This document shows, piece by piece, positions 4,331 to 22,978 of a stretch of DNA of 25,360 nt. Under the pieces are notes generated by a model. It was not told the origin of the DNA. It saw only the letters and a program-made list of their open reading frames with translations, and did not search any database. The translations under genes were made by a program, and so were the position numbers. Source of the stretch: a virus. Lineage: Duplodnaviria > Heunggongvirae > Uroviricota > Caudoviricetes. Location: IMG/VR virus record IMGVR_UViG_2529292905_000020. One strand, given 5' to 3'. Positions within the stretch are counted from its first letter, which is position 1. Every line of letters starts with the position of its first letter.

Positions 4331-4515
4331 TGCCAGCATCCTTTTTGTATCGGACGTAAACGGGCCAGCATTGAAAGAATGCATATTTTATTTAATAACT
4401 CCCGTTCGTGTTTTCTCTTGTTAATGGCATCTTCAGTAAATACAGGGTTACTGATAGTGACACCAATTTCAAAACAACCTTCAGACGTATTAACGTTTGG
4501 TAATAACGTTTCCAT
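4327..4515 (-). CDS. dicB: DicB cell-division inhibitor (62 aa)
   Basis: METLLPNVNTSEGCFEIGVTISNPVFTEDAINKRKHERELLNKICILSMLARL... matches remembered DicB. GAGGA 7 nt upstream of ATG 4515. The ORF-track start at 4620 is probably an upstream extension. Confidence 0.85.
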   Translation of the reverse strand: METLLPNVNTSEGCFEIGVTISNPVFTEDAINKRKHERELLNKICILSMLARLRPIQKGCWQ

Positions 4516-4684
4516 TATCGCGTCCTCAACAATGAATTTTGTGATGCGGTGCCTGGTGCCTCCAGGTGACGTTAACCAGTTAACAATTAACGCCGGATAC
4601 AGTGAATCCCCCCATAACACTGTTTTTAGCTTTAACTGTTCCGCGTGCGCTTAGCCGCATTCACTGCATCACAAAATTCACTTT

Positions 4685-4740
4685 AAAAAGGGCGGACATC
4701 AGTTCATGGGCAAACAGATGCCGCCAAACGTCACCAGAAA
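4685..4740 (-). ncRNA. dicF: DicF-like small RNA
   Basis: Minus strand reads UUUCUGGUGACGUUUGGCGG (matches the DicF 5' region as I recall it), then a GGCGGCAUC...GAUGUCCGCC stem and CUUUUU. Lies just upstream of dicB as in Qin. Exact 5' and 3' ends are inferred. Confidence 0.75.
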
Positions 4741-10908: not shown

Positions 10909-11667
10909 ATGAGGAACATAATGGCAGGTTTTTTAATATTCCTGTCTTCTGCTGCTTATGCTGATATCAATCTGTATGGTCCTGGTGGCCCGCATACAGC
11001 CTTGCTTGATGCAGCCAAACTTTATGCCGAAAAAACAGGTATTATAGTGAACGTTCATTACGGCCCACAGAACAAATGGAATGAAGATGCCAAAAAAAAT
11101 GCAGATATCTTGTTTGGCGCATCAGAACAATCTGCTCTGGCTATCATTCGGGACCATAAAGACAGCTTCAGTGAAAAAGATATTCAGCCTCTTTATCTGC
11201 GAAAAAGTATTTTACTGGTAAAGAAAGGTAATCCTAAAAATATCCGGAGTATTGACGACCTGACCAGACCTGGGATTGGCGTAATTGTTAATGATGGTGG
11301 TGGTACCAGTAATACATCAGGCACTGGCGTCTGGGAAGATATTGCCGGACGTAAAGGGAATATAGAAACTGTCGCCGCAATCCGAAAAAATATTATTTTA
11401 TATGCGCCCAATAGCGGAACTGCACGTAAGGCTCTTGAGAATCAGCCTGGAGCAGATGTCTGGATAACCTGGGCTGACTGGGCAGCCAGTAATCCAGAAA
11501 TTGGTGATGTCGTGGAAATAGCGCCAGACTACGTGATATGGCGTGATATGAACATTACAGTACGTCAGGATGCAAATGATGAAACCCGTCGATTTGCAGA
11601 ATGGCTACAAACCGATGAAGCGGCGCCTGCATTCAAAAAATATGGCTGGACCAGGAAAGGCACTTGA
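10909..11667 (+). CDS. Periplasmic substrate-binding protein, ModA/TupA-like type II fold, with Sec signal peptide
   Basis: 252-aa ORF, AAGGAG upstream. N-terminal signal peptide (MRNIMAGFLIFLSSAAYA then D). Colinear resemblance to E. coli ModA over the whole length (C-terminal FAEWLQTDEAAPAFKKYGW vs FYDYLKGPQAAEIFKRYGF). AT-rich codon usage. No adjacent ABC permease or ATPase gene. Confidence 0.8.
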   Translation: MRNIMAGFLIFLSSAAYADINLYGPGGPHTALLDAAKLYAEKTGIIVNVHYGPQNKWNEDAKKNADILFGASEQSALAIIRDHKDSFSEKDIQPLYLRKSILLVKKGNPKNIRSIDDLTRPGIGVIVNDGGGTSNTSGTGVWEDIAGRKGNIETVAAIRKNIILYAPNSGTARKALENQPGADVWITWADWAASNPEIGDVVEIAPDYVIWRDMNITVRQDANDETRRFAEWLQTDEAAPAFKKYGWTRKGT

Positions 11668-12386: not shown

Positions 12387-13274
12387 TCAGGCTGCCAGAT
12401 CATCGTTTCTGATGGAAGCATAATAAGCTTTTTCTGCTTCTGCCGGAGGGATATGACCCAGCCTTCCCAGCAATCGTCGATTGTTATACCAGTCCACCCA
12501 CGTGAGTGTGGCCAGTTCCACTTCTGCACGGTTTTTCCAGCTCTTACGGTGTATTACCTCCGCTTTGTAAAGACCATTGATGCTCTCCGCCATCGCGTTG
12601 TCATACGAGTCACCTGTACTCCCTGTTGATGCCAGCAGTTTTGCTTCTTTTAGTCGCTCCGTATAGGCCAGTGATACATACTGAGAACCTTTATCACTGT
12701 GATGGACTGTGCCGGACGGCCGACGGGCCCACAACGCCTGCTCCAGTGCATCCAGCACGAATGTCGTTTCCATAGACGATGAGACTCGCCACCCCACGAT
12801 GCATCCGGCAAACACATCAATGATGAACGCCACATAGACGAAGCCCTGCCATGTGCTGACGTAAGTAAAATCAGCCACCCACAGCTGGTCAGGACGTTCT
12901 GCCACGAACTGACGGTTTACGCGGTCGCCTGCGGAAACGGCTTTCCGGCTGACGGTAGTACGGACCTTTTTACCCCGGAGAACACCGGCAAGTCCCATAA
13001 CCGCCATGAGGCGCGCCACTGTACATCTGGCCACCCTGATACCTTCGCGTAACAACTGGCGCCAGACTTTACGCACACCGTACACCTGATGATTTTCATC
13101 GTATACGCGCTGTATCTCTCTCTTCAGCCAGTCATCGCGCTGCGCACGGGCACTGCGTTTATCAGGATGATGTCGCTGTTGCTGACAGTGGTAATACGTT
13201 GACGGGGCAATATGCAGTTCACTGCATACCGGTCCGACCCCGTACTGCTCACGCAGCTTATCCAGCAGTGGCAT
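12387..13274 (-). CDS. IS629 transposase OrfB (DDE catalytic domain)
   Basis: 295-aa ORF with the IS3-family OrfB C-terminus (...LGHIPPAEAEKAYYASIRNDDLAA). Confidence 0.9.
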   Translation of the reverse strand: MPLLDKLREQYGVGPVCSELHIAPSTYYHCQQQRHHPDKRSARAQRDDWLKREIQRVYDENHQVYGVRKVWRQLLREGIRVARCTVARLMAVMGLAGVLRGKKVRTTVSRKAVSAGDRVNRQFVAERPDQLWVADFTYVSTWQGFVYVAFIIDVFAGCIVGWRVSSSMETTFVLDALEQALWARRPSGTVHHSDKGSQYVSLAYTERLKEAKLLASTGSTGDSYDNAMAESINGLYKAEVIHRKSWKNRAEVELATLTWVDWYNNRRLLGRLGHIPPAEAEKAYYASIRNDDLAA

Positions 13275-13600
13275 TATTTTTTCCAGAGGCGGTCGAACTC
13301 CGCCTTCGCAAAATAAGCGGAAGCCTGGCGAAGGATATCGTTACTGCGGCGCAGTTCACGATTTTCACGTTCCAGCTCTTTCAGACGCTGACGTTCAGCG
13401 GTGGTGAATCCACCATCACCACTCCCGGTATCCCGCTCATGCTGACGAACCCACACACGCAGAGTCTCTGGCGTACAGCCAATCTTTGGGGCAATGGAAC
13501 AAATTGCCGCCCATTGTGAGTCATATTCGCCCTGACTTTCCAGAACCATACGAACTGCCCGTTGACGGACCTCGGGGGAAAAACGTGTATTTTTAGTCAT
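13274..13600 (-). CDS. IS629 transposase OrfA (HTH)
   Basis: 108-aa [22 protein letters not shown]... matching remembered IS629 OrfA. Its stop overlaps the OrfB ATG (TAATG) beside an A6 run. Confidence 0.9.
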
Positions 13601-16601: not shown

Positions 16602-16677
16602 GGCCCTTTAGCTCAGTGGTGAGAGCGAGCGACTCATAATCGCCAGGTCGCTGGTTCAAATCCAGCAAGGGCCACCA
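16602..16677 (+). tRNA. ileZ: tRNA-Ile2 (anticodon CAU, lysidine type)
   Basis: 76-nt cloverleaf. Acceptor GGCCCTT/AAGGGCC, anticodon loop CUCAUAA, T-loop TTCAAAT, encoded CCA. Closely resembles E. coli ileX. Confidence 0.9.
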
Positions 16678-16767: not shown

Positions 16768-16841
16768 GCGTTGTTAGCTCAGCAGGACAGAGCAATTGCC
16801 TTCTAAGCAATCGGTCACTGGTTCGACTCCAGTACAACGCG
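16768..16841 (+). tRNA. argO: tRNA-Arg (anticodon UCU)
   Basis: 74-nt cloverleaf. Acceptor GCGTTGT/ACAACGC, D-stem GCTC/GAGC, anticodon stem ATTGC/GCAAT with loop CTTCTAA, T-arm ACTGG-TTCGACT-CCAGT. 3' CCA not encoded. The argO name is positional (third tRNA of the Stx-phage-type trio). Confidence 0.85.
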
Positions 16842-17610: not shown

Positions 17611-17811
17611 TTTTTTTGTTTGCTGTTTATTAAAAACACTTCTGCATGGTGAATCCCCCTGTGCGGTGGGGCAATCAGCAAGAAGGAATATGGGGTAATC
17701 GCGGATTCAGGTGCTGATACTGAATTCACCGGGAGGCACCCGGCACCATGCTTTGCCACAAAAGTGTTATTTCTGTTTTTCTCAAACTATCATCGTTATC
17801 CCTTTATTTTC

Positions 17812-20222: not shown

Positions 20223-20429
20223 ATGGAAAAAATCACAACAGGTGTGTCATACACCACGTCAGCGGTGGGGACGGGATACTGGTTACTGCAGCTGCTGGAC
20301 AAAGTCTCTCCGTCCCAGTGGGTGGCAATAGGTGTGCTGGGAAGTCTGCTGTTTGGCCTGCTGACGTATCTGACAAATCTTTATTTCAAGATTAAAGAAG
20401 ATAAGCGTAAGGCTGCGAGAGGTGAATAA
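20223..20429 (+). CDS. Holin (phage 21 S-type pinholin)
   Basis: 68-aa [71 protein letters not shown] closely resembles remembered S21. Confidence 0.9.
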
Positions 20430-20926
20430 TGTCGCCGTCATTACGCAAGGCTGTTGCAGCTGCTATTGGTGGTGGGGCTGTTGCCATAGCGTCTGTGCTC
20501 ATCACTGGTCCAGGTGGTAACGATGGTCTGGAAGGTGTCAGCTACATACCATACAAAGATATCGTTGGCGTATGGACTGTATGTCACGGACACACCGGAA
20601 AAGACATCATGCCCGGTAAAACGTATACCGAAGCAGAATGCAAAGCCCTCCTGAATAAAGACCTTGCCACGGTCGCCAGACAAATTAACCCGTACATCAA
20701 CGTCGATATACCGGAAACAACGCGCGGCGCTCTTTACTCGTTCGTTTACAACGTGGGCGCTGGCAATTTCAGAACATCGACGCTTCTTCGCAAAATAAAC
20801 CAGGGCGATATCAAAGGCGCATGTGATCAGCTACGGCGCTGGACATACGCTGGCGGTAAGCAATGGAAAGGGCTGATGACTCGCCGCGAGATTGAGCGTG
20901 AAGTCTGTTTGTGGGGGCAACAATGA
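20429..20926 (+). CDS. SAR endolysin (lysozyme, phage 21 R-type)
   Basis: 165-aa ORF. N-terminal Gly/Ala-rich signal-anchor segment ([20 protein letters not shown]) then a T4-lysozyme-like domain. TAATG overlap with the holin gene. Confidence 0.9.
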
Positions 20927-21390
20927 GCAGGGTAACCGTTATTATCTCCGCTCTGGTTATCTGCATTATCGCCTGCCTGTCATGGGCTGTTAATCATTAC
21001 CGCGATAACGCCATTACCTACAAAGCGCAACGCGATAAAAAAGCCAGTGAGCTGAAGCTGGCGAACGTGACAATTACTGATATGCAGGTACGCCAGCGTG
21101 ATGTCGCTGCACTTGATGCCAGATACTCGAGGGAATTAGCCGATGCGAGAGCTGAAAATGAAACTCTGCGTGCTGATGTTGCCGCTGGTCGTAAGCGCCT
21201 GCGCATCAACGCCAACTGTCCAGGCTCCTTGCGTAAAGCCCCCATCACCTCCGGCGTGGGTAATGCAACCGGTCCCCGACTGGCAGAAGCCGCTGAACGG
21301 GATTATTTCATCCTCAGAGAACGGCTGATGGCAATGCAGAAGCAACTGGAAGGAGCACAGGAATATATCCGTACCCAGTGTATACCGTGA
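20923..21390 (+). CDS. Rz (inner-membrane spanin)
   Basis: Start at ATG 20923 overlapping the endolysin stop (ATGA). N-terminal TM segment, coiled-coil-like body. Contains an embedded +1-frame lipoprotein ORF. Confidence 0.85.
21158..21328 (+). CDS. Rz1 (outer-membrane lipoprotein spanin), embedded in Rz
   Basis: [15 protein letters not shown]: lipobox VSAC followed by a Pro-rich mature region ([22 protein letters not shown]), entirely inside Rz in another frame. Confidence 0.7.
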
Positions 21391-21854
21391 TGTTTTGTTA
21401 TGAAGATGTTACTGGTAACATTAAGGTAATTTAACAAAGAGTCAGTTCCGGACTTTATAGTGTGCTCAGTTCATGGCCAAAAACGATTTCTGTGATAAAT
21501 ATTTTGAATATTATTTACAGGTAAATGGAGTGGGGCGCATGGATAGAAATATTACAATAGAGTATGAAGTATATGCCCGTATTGTATGGGCAGAGAAGGC
21601 AAAAACACGGTAAATCCGTGTGTTGCCATGATACCTGATTGGCAGAATAGTTGTTTGGTTTTGAGTATATAGTCAGCGTTTTTTGTTCAGTAATTGCCCC
21701 CTCAAAAAATAATAAAATAAGGTGATTATTTTTGTTTATTATTTAGTTTTTTTGTGTGTTATTTTATTGTTTTTGCGTGGTTTGTTTTTTATTGTTATTT
21801 CATTAAGGGAAGGTAAATTCAGGATGGCAGTCTGTAGATAATCGGAGGTCACTT

Positions 21855-22169
21855 ATGCTACATGATCACGTGGCAGAATGTCTAGAGAAAAAAGGACTGT
21901 ACCGGAGAGCAGCTGAACGATGGGCAAAAGTGATGGTACAGCTAAGTGATGACCAGAAAAGAAAAGTGGCGGCACAGAAACGAGCAGAGTGTTTGCGTAA
22001 GGCGCGCCGGACTCCGGTTTCACCGGTGAACCTGACCGAAATAAAACAAGCGGTCAACAGACTACATTCTGAGTTGGGAATGGGATTTGAAGAGCGGCGG
22101 GTATTCCGACGATATAAAGGGACAGGAGAACAGAATACGTCCGGAAACGCGCGGTCAAAAAAATGCTAA
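21855..22169 (+). CDS. PerC-family transcriptional regulator (Pch-like)
   Basis: 104-aa ORF with GGAGG upstream. N-terminal VAECLEKKGLYRRAAERWAKVM resembles the conserved PerC/Pch N-terminus. AT-rich, preceded by a T-rich tract. Confidence 0.55.
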   Translation: MLHDHVAECLEKKGLYRRAAERWAKVMVQLSDDQKRKVAAQKRAECLRKARRTPVSPVNLTEIKQAVNRLHSELGMGFEERRVFRRYKGTGEQNTSGNARSKKC

Positions 22170-22250
22170 AAAATATCTGAGAGAGTTATTGCCTGTTACC
22201 ATAAGAAAAAGCGACTTTAGTGGTCGCTTTTTGTGTCATATATAAGTCGT

Positions 22251-22475
22251 TTAAGTAAACCTGTCTGAACAGGTGCTCTGGTCGTGTTTGTCTTTGTTGG
22301 GTACAAATTGAGAATATTTTTCATTAATTAATCTTCTTCTGCAGGCTTCAATAACCCACGCTGAAAAATTACCTGAACCTTTCTGGTCAAGAGCGATGTT
22401 AATTTGTTCAATCATCTGGTTTGGAAATCGGATGTTGCGGGTTGTTGTTCTGCGGGTCCGGTTTTTCGGTGACAT
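22251..22475 (-). CDS. Putative ribbon-helix-helix DNA-binding protein
   Basis: 74-aa ORF with GAGGAAAG upstream. RNIRFPNQMIEQINIALDQKGSGNFSAWVIEACRRRL fits a beta-strand then helix-helix RHH pattern. Confidence 0.45.
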   Translation of the reverse strand: MSPKNRTRRTTTRNIRFPNQMIEQINIALDQKGSGNFSAWVIEACRRRLINEKYSQFVPNKDKHDQSTCSDRFT

Positions 22476-22516
22476 TTTCTTTCCTCTGGTAACAAGCTAT
22501 ATGGCGAGGATTTTAC

Positions 22517-22978
22517 ATGGCCGTGCTTCGTACGTTACCGGGCAGAATCAAAACTCTGAATACCCGGCGGGTGAATGTCCTGAAGGGTGAACAGCGTCGG
22601 GTCAGTGGCAGTGCCCGGGTTTCCCTCAAGCGTCGTATCTGGCTGAGGGATGCCGGACAGTGCTGTCTCTGTGGGCGTGTGGTTGACCTTTGTGACAGTG
22701 AACTCGATCACCGCATTGCACTTCAGTTCGGTGGTGGTAATGAGGAGACGAATCTCTGGACGCTCTGTACCGAATGCCATCGCCAGAAGTCAGTCAGTGA
22801 AACGGCGAGTGGTATGCCGGACCCGACGCTGCCGGAGGTCATGGCAGGGCAGACGATATCATCGGACTGTGACCCGCCCCGGGGGGGGATCATCCGGCGA
22901 AAAAAACGATCGTCCCGGACACCGCCCCCCGTCTCACGCAGAGAAAAAATTCCCGTTTCAGGGCTGTTAACATGTTAA
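22517..22978 (+). CDS. HNH endonuclease (terminase-associated)
   Basis: 153-aa ORF with GAGGA upstream. Motif CCLCGR...DHRIALQFGG...NLWTLCTECHRQK. Directly upstream of the terminase genes. The 3' end runs through homopolymer tracts, so its exact end is uncertain. Confidence 0.8.
   Translation: MAVLRTLPGRIKTLNTRRVNVLKGEQRRVSGSARVSLKRRIWLRDAGQCCLCGRVVDLCDSELDHRIALQFGGGNEETNLWTLCTECHRQKSVSETASGMPDPTLPEVMAGQTISSDCDPPRGGIIRRKKRSSRTPPPVSRREKIPVSGLLTC

Follow-up and report, generated by a model that had tools for sequence, protein, structure and literature searches.

What is the small gene that stands between the lysis and packaging genes of this prophage, and what is the extremely T-rich DNA just upstream of it? 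We addressed both questions within the whole stretch of DNA analysed, 25,360 nucleotides long (hereafter the window), by combining profile searches, comparison with other copies of the locus, structural predictions for DNA and RNA, and the published literature.

A pchA-type gene in its usual prophage position

The window is a lambdoid prophage whose integration site adjoins ompW. It is 99.7–99.8% identical to prophages of O55:H7 strains and, over its full length, 99.2% identical to prophages from several cattle and human isolates. The genes follow the order int, xis, exo, dicB, repressor/cro, replication genes, paa, hok/sok, an IS3-family insertion, Q, two tRNAs, an esterase, the lysis genes, pch and the packaging genes. 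The features around pch are these:

20223..21390, + strand: lysis cassette (holin, lysozyme, Rz and embedded Rz1), directly upstream of pch
20223-20429, + strand: P21-type holin (Pfam Phage_holin_2_1)
20429-20926, + strand: phage lysozyme (Pfam Phage_lysozyme)
20911-21390, + strand: Rz (Pfam Phage_lysis)
21143-21328, + strand: Rz1, embedded in Rz (Pfam Rz1)
21844-21848, + strand: Shine-Dalgarno sequence GGAGG of pch
21855..22169, + strand: pch gene, pchA-type allele of group-1 pchABC (ATG start, 104 aa)
22204..22237, no strand assigned: terminator-like hairpin with an A-run on one side and a T-run on the other, in the gap that separates the convergent genes pch and ylcI/ynfO

The encoded protein matches the Pfam PerC family (PF06069) with an E-value of 3.8e-44 and 149.3 bits, against a gathering cutoff of 22.6, and residues 1–89 align to model positions 1–89 of 90. 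It is identical at 104 of 104 positions to PchA (ECs_1091) of E. coli O157:H7 Sakai. The same exact protein sequence occurs on at least 1000 public contigs, and its UniRef name is PchABC family regulator. The profile search thus bears out the identification as a PerC/Pch-like regulator that a sequence-only reading of this DNA had proposed. The same reading had placed the gene downstream of a lysis cassette, and holin, lysozyme and Rz/Rz1 indeed lie directly 5' of it according to both Pfam and RefSeq, our calls agreeing with the RefSeq annotation of the 99.7%-identical O55:H7 prophage. On the 3' side we found a YlcI/YnfO gene on the opposite strand, an HNH endonuclease, and TerS and TerL. This slot, with lysis genes upstream and packaging genes downstream, is the one described for group-1 Pch. 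The hairpin at 22204–22237 (predicted fold of -14.7 kcal/mol, with an 11-bp stem and a U-tail) is conserved together with the pch block in the alignment with Sakai pchA and pchB.

The AT-rich upstream region (~460 bp), the gene and the downstream hairpin terminator form one block, which is usually present in several prophages per genome. The 632-bp block at 21614–22245 was found in 672 of 5426 complete E. coli genomes (~12%), in one to five copies per genome (median 3). The best copy was at least 99% identical in 656 of 688 records, and a few copies were plasmid-borne. Viral contigs contributed 80 loci carrying the pch block, with 99–100% protein identity. A scan of species-representative genomes yielded two relatives only, one in E. 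albertii and one in an Escherichia sp., and a word-indexed protein search returned close relatives and nothing more distant. No relative of solved structure was found in the PDB at E-values up to 10, and the single-sequence AlphaFold model of PchA (pLDDT 51) was too weak for a fold search. We consider it highly probable that this is a group-1 pch "moron" of the standard kind, an additional gene carried as a self-contained unit by a lambdoid prophage, in its pchA-type allele. The gene is already known, has been characterised by experiment and sits where prophages usually carry it.

Much is established about such genes. E. coli O157:H7 carries five perC homologues that fall into three groups (PMC6265319). 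The LEE1 promoter (ler) is a target of activation by PchA, PchB and PchC, without which LEE expression and adherence fall short of their full level (PMC6265319, PMC4764244). The three proteins act by lifting silencing at LEE1: activation is seen only while the promoter is repressed by H-NS, StpA, Hha and YdgT, and Pch reduces H-NS occupancy at LEE1 (PMC4764244). Since the window protein is identical to the experimentally characterised Sakai PchA, the connection between prophage carriage and LEE regulation drawn in the sequence-only reading is established biology (PMC6265319, PMC4764244, PMC4456613). Activation of LEE1/ler and promotion of adherence, established in the literature for the identical protein (PMC6265319, PMC4764244), would thus be expected of the window copy as well.

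Transcription of pchA responds to LrhA, to Lrp with butyrate and to LeuO (PMC4456613), to sigma-S/NtrC (PMC10714755), and to ppGpp and the stringent response, as well as indirectly to Fur (PMC4090186, PMC6094958). In addition, SOS and prophage induction raise the expression of group-1 pch genes (PMC6265319). Given the location of pch within the late operon, Q-antiterminated transcripts of that operon are expected to run through it as well, and such read-through would fit the reported SOS induction. In practical terms, annotation of the window can name a pchA-type gene, carried by a lambdoid prophage that is integrated beside ompW and harbours paa and a copy of dicF too. If the host is LEE-positive, this pch would represent an extra dose of a master activator of attaching-and-effacing virulence, and its level should rise upon prophage induction. 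Current understanding is unchanged by this copy.

A T-rich tract conserved in composition

The intergenic DNA between Rz and pch comprises the following elements:

21391..21720, + strand: AT-rich non-coding region from the Rz stop codon to the tract, 97–100% conserved among copies
21595-21625, + strand: imperfect hairpin within that region
21701-21720, + strand: A-rich block preceding the tract
21721..21805, + strand: T-rich tract, at -134 to -50 from the pch start codon
21806..21854, + strand: conserved proximal block with the Shine-Dalgarno GGAGG and a -10-like TAAATT (21814-21819)

The 85 nucleotides of the tract comprise 57 T, 15 G, 11 A and 2 C, which corresponds to 67% T, 85% T+G and 80% A+T. 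Among all 85-nt stretches on both strands of the 25.4-kb window it has the highest T count, the next peak reaching 43. The mean T count across the window is 21.6 (sd 6.1), which places the tract ~5.8 sd above it. It is also the T+G maximum of the window and lies inside its strongest A+T peak. The extreme T-richness described in the sequence-only reading is therefore real, although "almost entirely T and G" overstated the composition, with 13% of the bases being A.

We compared the block in a sample of 54 distinct copies. The flanks (from the end of Rz to 21613, and 21806–21854) are generally well conserved. The proximal block is 100% identical in most copies and 90–92% identical in the pchB-type allele, and the coding sequence is 98–100% identical among prophage copies, falling to 82.5% in the E. 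albertii copy only. The tract, together with ~25 bp 5' of it, is 72–77% identical in the copies of a second allele family, which takes in the pchB type and related prophage alleles; in two outlier copies the tract drops to 40% and 54%, the latter being that of E. albertii. Homopolymer lengths within it also differ, for example T7 versus T8. Alignment with Sakai pchA and pchB assigns the window to the pchA-type allele, and the divergence between the two lies almost wholly in a sharply bounded patch of ~115 bp (~21697–21812) that covers the tract. T-richness of the sense strand, on the other hand, is kept at the same distance from the start codon in every stand-alone copy compared: T accounts for 58 of 85 positions in the allele of the pchB type and for 53 of 85 in a further one, and its share is 52% in E. 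albertii and 54% on plasmid pDEC5B-4. No T-rich tract precedes the operon-embedded perC of EPEC pMAR2 or E. albertii perABC, and none of this kind was found with the perC genes of Salmonella, Klebsiella and Pantoea plasmids or of phage Pollock. Since T-richness is kept in stand-alone copies despite sequence divergence, and is absent from operon-embedded perC, the tract is a genuine, compositionally conserved part of the prophage-borne pch cassette. Judged by alignment, it is also the main point at which the putative regulatory regions of the pchA and pchB types differ.

The same variation bears on whether the tract is selected at all. It could be functionless filler of odd composition at the edge of a mobile cassette, hitch-hiking with pch. 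The tract is the least conserved part of the block (72–77%, with the outliers at 40% and 54%, versus 98–99% for the coding sequence in prophage copies), and the homopolymer length differences are what such filler would show. Against this, T-richness persists at equal distance from the start codon even in the E. albertii and pDEC5B-4 alleles, and the divergent patch is sharply bordered within near-identical DNA, resembling the allelic replacement of a functional unit. We thus hold filler to be improbable.

Coding potential and small RNA candidates

A second explanation of the composition would be that the tract encodes a small hydrophobic protein. The window does contain an open frame of 39 aa with a GTG start (21722–21841), whose T-rich codons would specify a peptide rich in Phe, Leu, Val and Ile. 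This frame is however broken in 43 of the 54 distinct copies, mostly by homopolymer length changes and including that of Sakai pchA, and the peptide has no family match. The frame-breaking variants refute the tract as a gene, and we attach practically no credence to this explanation.

Other candidates in the region were rejected as well. An ORF of 46 aa at 21473–21613 is intact in 50 of 54 copies, yet its substitutions at codon positions 1, 2 and 3 number 9, 13 and 5. Since they fall mostly at positions 1 and 2, this ORF is probably not coding; it also has no family match. A minus-strand small RNA was considered from a promoter-like site at 21738–21709 and a terminator-like hairpin at 21621–21605, but such elements are no commoner here than in shuffled sequence. 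The fold z-score of the candidate is -1.9, and the pchB-allele substitution preserves the hairpin (21621–21605) in plus-strand RNA only. An Rfam scan of 21350–22550 gave nothing with an E-value below 1. The small RNA Esr41 was ruled out at the pch locus, as it adjoins iha.

AT-richness, curvature and H-NS

The sequence-only reading had taken the tract for curved AT-rich DNA of the kind bound by H-NS. In its full form, this explanation holds that intrinsically curved, AT-rich DNA nucleates H-NS, with pch staying silent until a counter-silencer acts. The AT-rich part stands. A+T reaches 80% over the 85-bp tract and 67% over the 464-bp intergenic region 21391–21854, and both are AT-rich relative to their surroundings; GC is 33–39% over 21300–21900 versus ~50% around it, the deepest GC trough of that part of the window. 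Predicted curvature also shows a peak of ~19 degrees per turn near 21703, at the junction between the A-block and the T-tract, which ranks seventh in the window.

The curvature of the tract itself is another matter. Runs of at least four T follow one another at distances of 19, 13.5, 8.5 and 15.5 bp, without the 10–11 bp phasing of the helix, and spectral power at 10–11.5 bp is 0.54 versus a shuffle mean of 0.68, with 54% of shuffles as high. By a wedge-model estimate, curvature within the tract is only moderately high and stays at or below 15 degrees per turn (97.5th percentile of the window). The high-affinity H-NS motif TCGATAAATT has no match with two or fewer mismatches in 21614–21854, and TCGATAAATT-like matches across the window are at chance level (21 observed versus 25 expected). 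Moreover, AT-richness alone leaves unexplained why alleles with no more than 54–77% identity keep their T bias on the sense strand.

The literature adds one indirect observation. A synthetic butyrate sensor built as PpchA-pchA-PLEE1 worked only in an hns deletion strain (PMC7279287). As the construct also holds the H-NS-silenced LEE1 promoter, it cannot separate silencing of pch from that of LEE1 (PMC7279287). In the full-text papers and supplements examined we found no report of H-NS occupancy at pch promoters or of their hns-dependent expression. The idea of curved H-NS-binding DNA is accordingly supported in part: binding of H-NS at the tract is plausible on general grounds because the region is AT-rich, whereas curvature finds no support in unphased T-runs, and the high-affinity motif is absent. 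As an account of the tract, nucleation of H-NS on curved DNA is a credible possibility that we rate somewhat below the probable.

A promoter zone or a transcribed leader

Our preferred reading is that the tract forms part of the pch promoter and regulatory region, where it would serve as the -35/upstream zone of a proximal promoter with the -10-like element at 21814–21819. A TTGTTA lies 16 bp upstream of the TAAATT at 21814–21819, the pair matching 8 of 12 consensus positions, and the copies of E. albertii and pDEC5B-4 still have a TAAAT-like element. The segment 21806–21854 may represent the core promoter and a short leader. With the -10-like TAAATT in this position, the tract would span about -22 to -105, that is, the zone of the -35/upstream element and of regulator binding.

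Alternatively, the tract could be transcribed and act as a U-rich 5' leader, offering a site for Hfq, ribosomal protein S1 or RNase E and taking part in the control of pchA translation by Hfq and DicF. Conservation of T on the sense strand despite sequence divergence would suit an RNA element, and the action of DicF on pchA is reported to be Hfq-dependent (PMC7308464). In a consensus promoter scan, moreover, the sole plus-strand match (TTGCCA-17-AATAGT, 21623–21651) is upstream of the tract and implies a ~195-nt leader containing it. That scan, however, found 3 sites versus 2.8 expected in shuffled sequence, no better than chance. The leader together with the early coding sequence folds no more stably than shuffles (z -0.55), and according to reviews the cis-inhibitory element and the site of DicF pairing lie at the Shine-Dalgarno and in the coding sequence, not in an upstream leader. 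Our full-text literature search found no transcription start site for pch. On balance, both the U-rich leader and its proposed part in DicF control seem rather unlikely to us.

Returning to the promoter reading, the patch covering the tract could be a swappable unit that sets regulation of the pchA type apart from that of the pchB type. LrhA has been reported to control pchA and pchB differently, in a passage citing earlier work (PMC4456613, citing Honda 2009). If the patch is such a unit, the regulatory difference between pchA and pchB would map to one sharply bounded T-rich segment, which could be exchanged experimentally.

DicF and the pch mRNA

According to the literature, translation of pchA is blocked because its ribosome-binding site pairs with a segment of the coding region (PMC7769764, PMC7873438), and DicF together with Hfq releases this block at low oxygen (PMC7769764, PMC7873438, PMC7308464). 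Two features of the window relate to this model:

4690..4740, - strand: DicF-like small RNA gene beside dicB (Rfam DicF, match to the 5' end)
21943..21954, + strand: predicted anti-Shine-Dalgarno segment in the pch coding sequence, pairing with 21844-21855

The DicF-like gene scores 43.5 bits against the Rfam DicF model, just under the gathering score of 48 (E-value 1.3e-7), and its RNA matches 24 of 26 positions of the DicF 5' end. DicF-like copies are also found in Sakai Sp4, the pchA prophage, and Sp11, the pchB prophage; the activating small RNA and its target mRNA thus reside on the same element in three cases, namely the window prophage, Sp4 and Sp11.

In the minimum-free-energy folds of all transcripts reaching at least 22100, 21844–21855 is paired with 21943–21954. 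The predicted unpaired probability in the Shine-Dalgarno region is at or below 0.03 for four of the seven bases scored (21844, 21845, 21848 and 21849), and 21846 and 21847 are ~0.96 unpaired in full-length folds. The 5' end of the prophage DicF is predicted to pair at 21931–21960 (-21.0 kcal/mol) or at 22002–22030 (-23.4 kcal/mol), the former overlapping the predicted anti-Shine-Dalgarno segment. As equal energies are obtained with 12 of 200 shuffled seeds, this pairing is consistent with the published model and is not independent proof of it.

PerC proteins and the ANR family

How PerC and Pch act on their targets is a specialist question of its own. Complexes of PerC with DNA were undetected in vitro (PMC6094958), so that contact of PerC with its targets is still debated. 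The ANR family (Aar and its relatives) likewise consists of small helical proteins, with ties to regulation that depends on H-NS (PMC5570504, PMC4764244). Its members bind H-NS and possess no DNA-binding domain (PMC5570504), and a relationship between the two families would therefore bear on the mode of action of Pch.

We compared the families by profile. In each of nine diverse PerC-family proteins examined, the first ~50 residues match the ANR profile (NCBIfam NF033650) below its cutoff and in a constant register. PchA scores 13.6 bits, under the cutoff of 32, and the other PerC members 15.7–23 bits. In a library of 1.84 billion proteins, all 74 PerC representatives match Pfam PerC, and 56 of the 74 match ANR with E-values no higher than 0.01 (best 1.1e-7). 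PchA can be aligned without gaps to the signature published for ANR, A-x3-E-x7-A-x3-W-x14-W-x3-R-x3-C (PMC4983702), through A7, E11, A19, W23, V38, K42 and C46; the second W of the signature corresponds to V38 in PchA and is W in several other PerC members. Three routes agree on this register. ANR matches had already been noted in a 2025 paper for a PerC-like repressor encoded by a PICI (PMC11773190).

Other comparisons were negative or set the families apart. Aar itself does not match Pfam PerC, and significance was not reached when hhalign compared the PerC profile with Aar or with a small Aar cluster (E-value 0.11 for the narrow Aar cluster). ANR proteins are described as under 10 kDa with three helices, whereas PchA has 104 aa, and its model, of low confidence (pLDDT 51), shows a fourth predicted helix and a disordered tail. 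PerC proteins carry an additional ~40–55 residues at the C terminus. Functionally, ANRs are repressors that bind AraC-family activators, in contrast to Pch, which is an activator.

Taken at the level of profiles and signature, the PerC and ANR families look related, which we offer as a lead for the question of how PerC and Pch act. A bolder proposal is that the N-terminal ~50 residues of PchA and PerC constitute an ANR-type helical module and that Pch and PerC relieve H-NS silencing of LEE1 mainly through protein–protein contacts; we put this forward tentatively, and judge it less likely than not. Under such a scheme, Pch and PerC would act within the nucleoprotein complex and not as classical DNA-binding activators. 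If true, this would reconcile the undetected PerC–DNA complexes with the strict dependence of Pch on H-NS-family proteins, and would explain the repression of LEE by the PICI-encoded PerC-like protein.

Comparison with PchA, PchB and PerC

The closest known counterpart of the window locus is pchA of Sakai (ECs_1091, Sp4). In addition to the identical protein, 470 bp of upstream sequence including the tract are ~99% alike, the terminator is the same, and the gene again stands between Rz/Rz1 and the packaging genes. The differences concern mainly the setting: the window gene resides in another, ompW-adjacent prophage with paa, hok/sok and an IS3-family insertion, whereas in Sp4 the segment from the lysis genes to pchA is inverted between insertion sequences. 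Within the tract, the window has a run of T7 where Sakai pchA has T8.

PchB of Sakai (ECs_2182, Sp11) shares the slot and flanks as well, and differs from the window protein by a single residue (V6L). Upstream of the gene, however, ~21697–21812 (the A-rich block and the T-tract) is replaced in pchB by diverged, equally T-rich sequence, and two substitutions adjoin the ribosome-binding site.

PerC of EPEC, encoded by perABC on pMAR2/EAF, belongs to the same Pfam family, and like PchA it activates LEE1 (PMC4764244, PMC6094958). The two share an invariant core consisting of A7, L10, E11, R17, R18, A19, A20, R22, W23, C46 and G75, with 45% identity over aligned columns and 47% in the local tblastn match. 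EPEC PerC is shorter, at 89 aa, and lacks the C-terminal tail, and its dependence on H-NS is reported to differ (PMC6094958). Its gene is the last of the operon, 50 bp after perB, and, unlike the stand-alone pch of the prophages, has neither a T-rich tract nor a promoter of its own.

Probable regulatory DNA upstream of pch

Aligned with the region upstream of Sakai pchB (prophage Sp11, L093), the pchA-type locus in the window differs in one patch of about 115 bp with sharp borders (21697-21812), consisting of an A-rich block and the T-tract. On both sides of it, pchA-type and pchB-type loci are nearly identical for hundreds of bases. Judged from this alignment, the patch looks like the replacement of a regulatory cassette, and could be a cause of the differential control of pchA and pchB reported in PMC4456613.

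Three further features were examined between the lysis gene Rz and pch:

21473-21613, plus strand: 46-aa ORF
21595-21625: imperfect hairpin (GGCAA..ACACGG-loop-CCGTGT..TTGCC)
21709-21738, minus strand: promoter-like site within the T-tract

Read on the minus strand, the hairpin scores as an intrinsic terminator; with the promoter-like site it could delimit a predicted divergent RNA of about 100 nt. Such promoter-like and terminator-like sites were no more frequent than in shuffled sequence, and the substitution that the pchB allele carries in the hairpin keeps pairing only in plus-strand RNA. The ORF is intact in 50 of the 54 distinct copies compared. Since most substitutions fall at codon positions 1 and 2 and the product matched no family, the pattern of change suggests that this segment is probably non-coding regulatory DNA.

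Small RNA and tRNA genes

DicF has been reported as an activator sRNA for pchA mRNA (PMC7769764, PMC7873438), and a DicF-like gene accompanies pch in each of these prophages:

Window 4690-4740, minus strand: DicF-like small RNA gene, adjoining dicB
L002 5725-5784: DicF-like small RNA gene of Sakai Sp4, the pchA prophage
L093 46580-46639: DicF-like small RNA gene of Sakai Sp11, the pchB prophage

The window copy, at 43.5 bits, is just below the Rfam gathering score of 48; its 5' end is kept and its 3' half has diverged. With dicF-like genes in the pchA and pchB prophages as well, activator sRNA and target mRNA reside together on the same mobile element.

Further RNA features lie downstream of Q:

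16602-16674 and 16768-16841, plus strand: tRNA genes, Ile and Arg by the annotation of the near-identical O55:H7 record
17615-17787, plus strand: STnc100-family sRNA match, preceding an esterase gene

A second, weaker STnc100-like match adjoins the DicF-like gene (4496-4701, minus strand).

The PerC family and the ANR profile

The ANR family comprises Aar-like negative regulators of AraC. PerC-family proteins (loci L085-L092; proteins P0031-P0109) matched its profile consistently and in a single register, below the cutoff. The matching segment of PchA spans residues 1-50 (window 21855-22004), and the protein accommodates the published ANR signature residues without gaps. A profile-profile comparison between PerC and the small cluster around Aar gave no significant match. 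ANR matches of one PerC-like protein were already remarked on in 2025 (PMC11773190).

Other cargo and comparison with O55:H7

10909-11667, plus strand: adhesin gene paa
11856-12158, plus strand: hok/sok toxin-antitoxin locus
12387-13600, minus strand: IS3-family element
13203-13319: frameshift pseudoknot of this element (Rfam ALIL)
22517-22978, plus strand: HNH endonuclease ORF, preceding terminase

At 27.8 bits (cutoff 175), the HNH ORF gave a weak domain-level match to the HNH region of IscB, explained by the common HNH motif alone. The window ORF encodes 153 aa; the near-identical O55:H7 record annotates it as an incomplete pseudogene. The O55:H7 CB9615 prophage, otherwise nearly identical to the window, lacks the IS3-family element.
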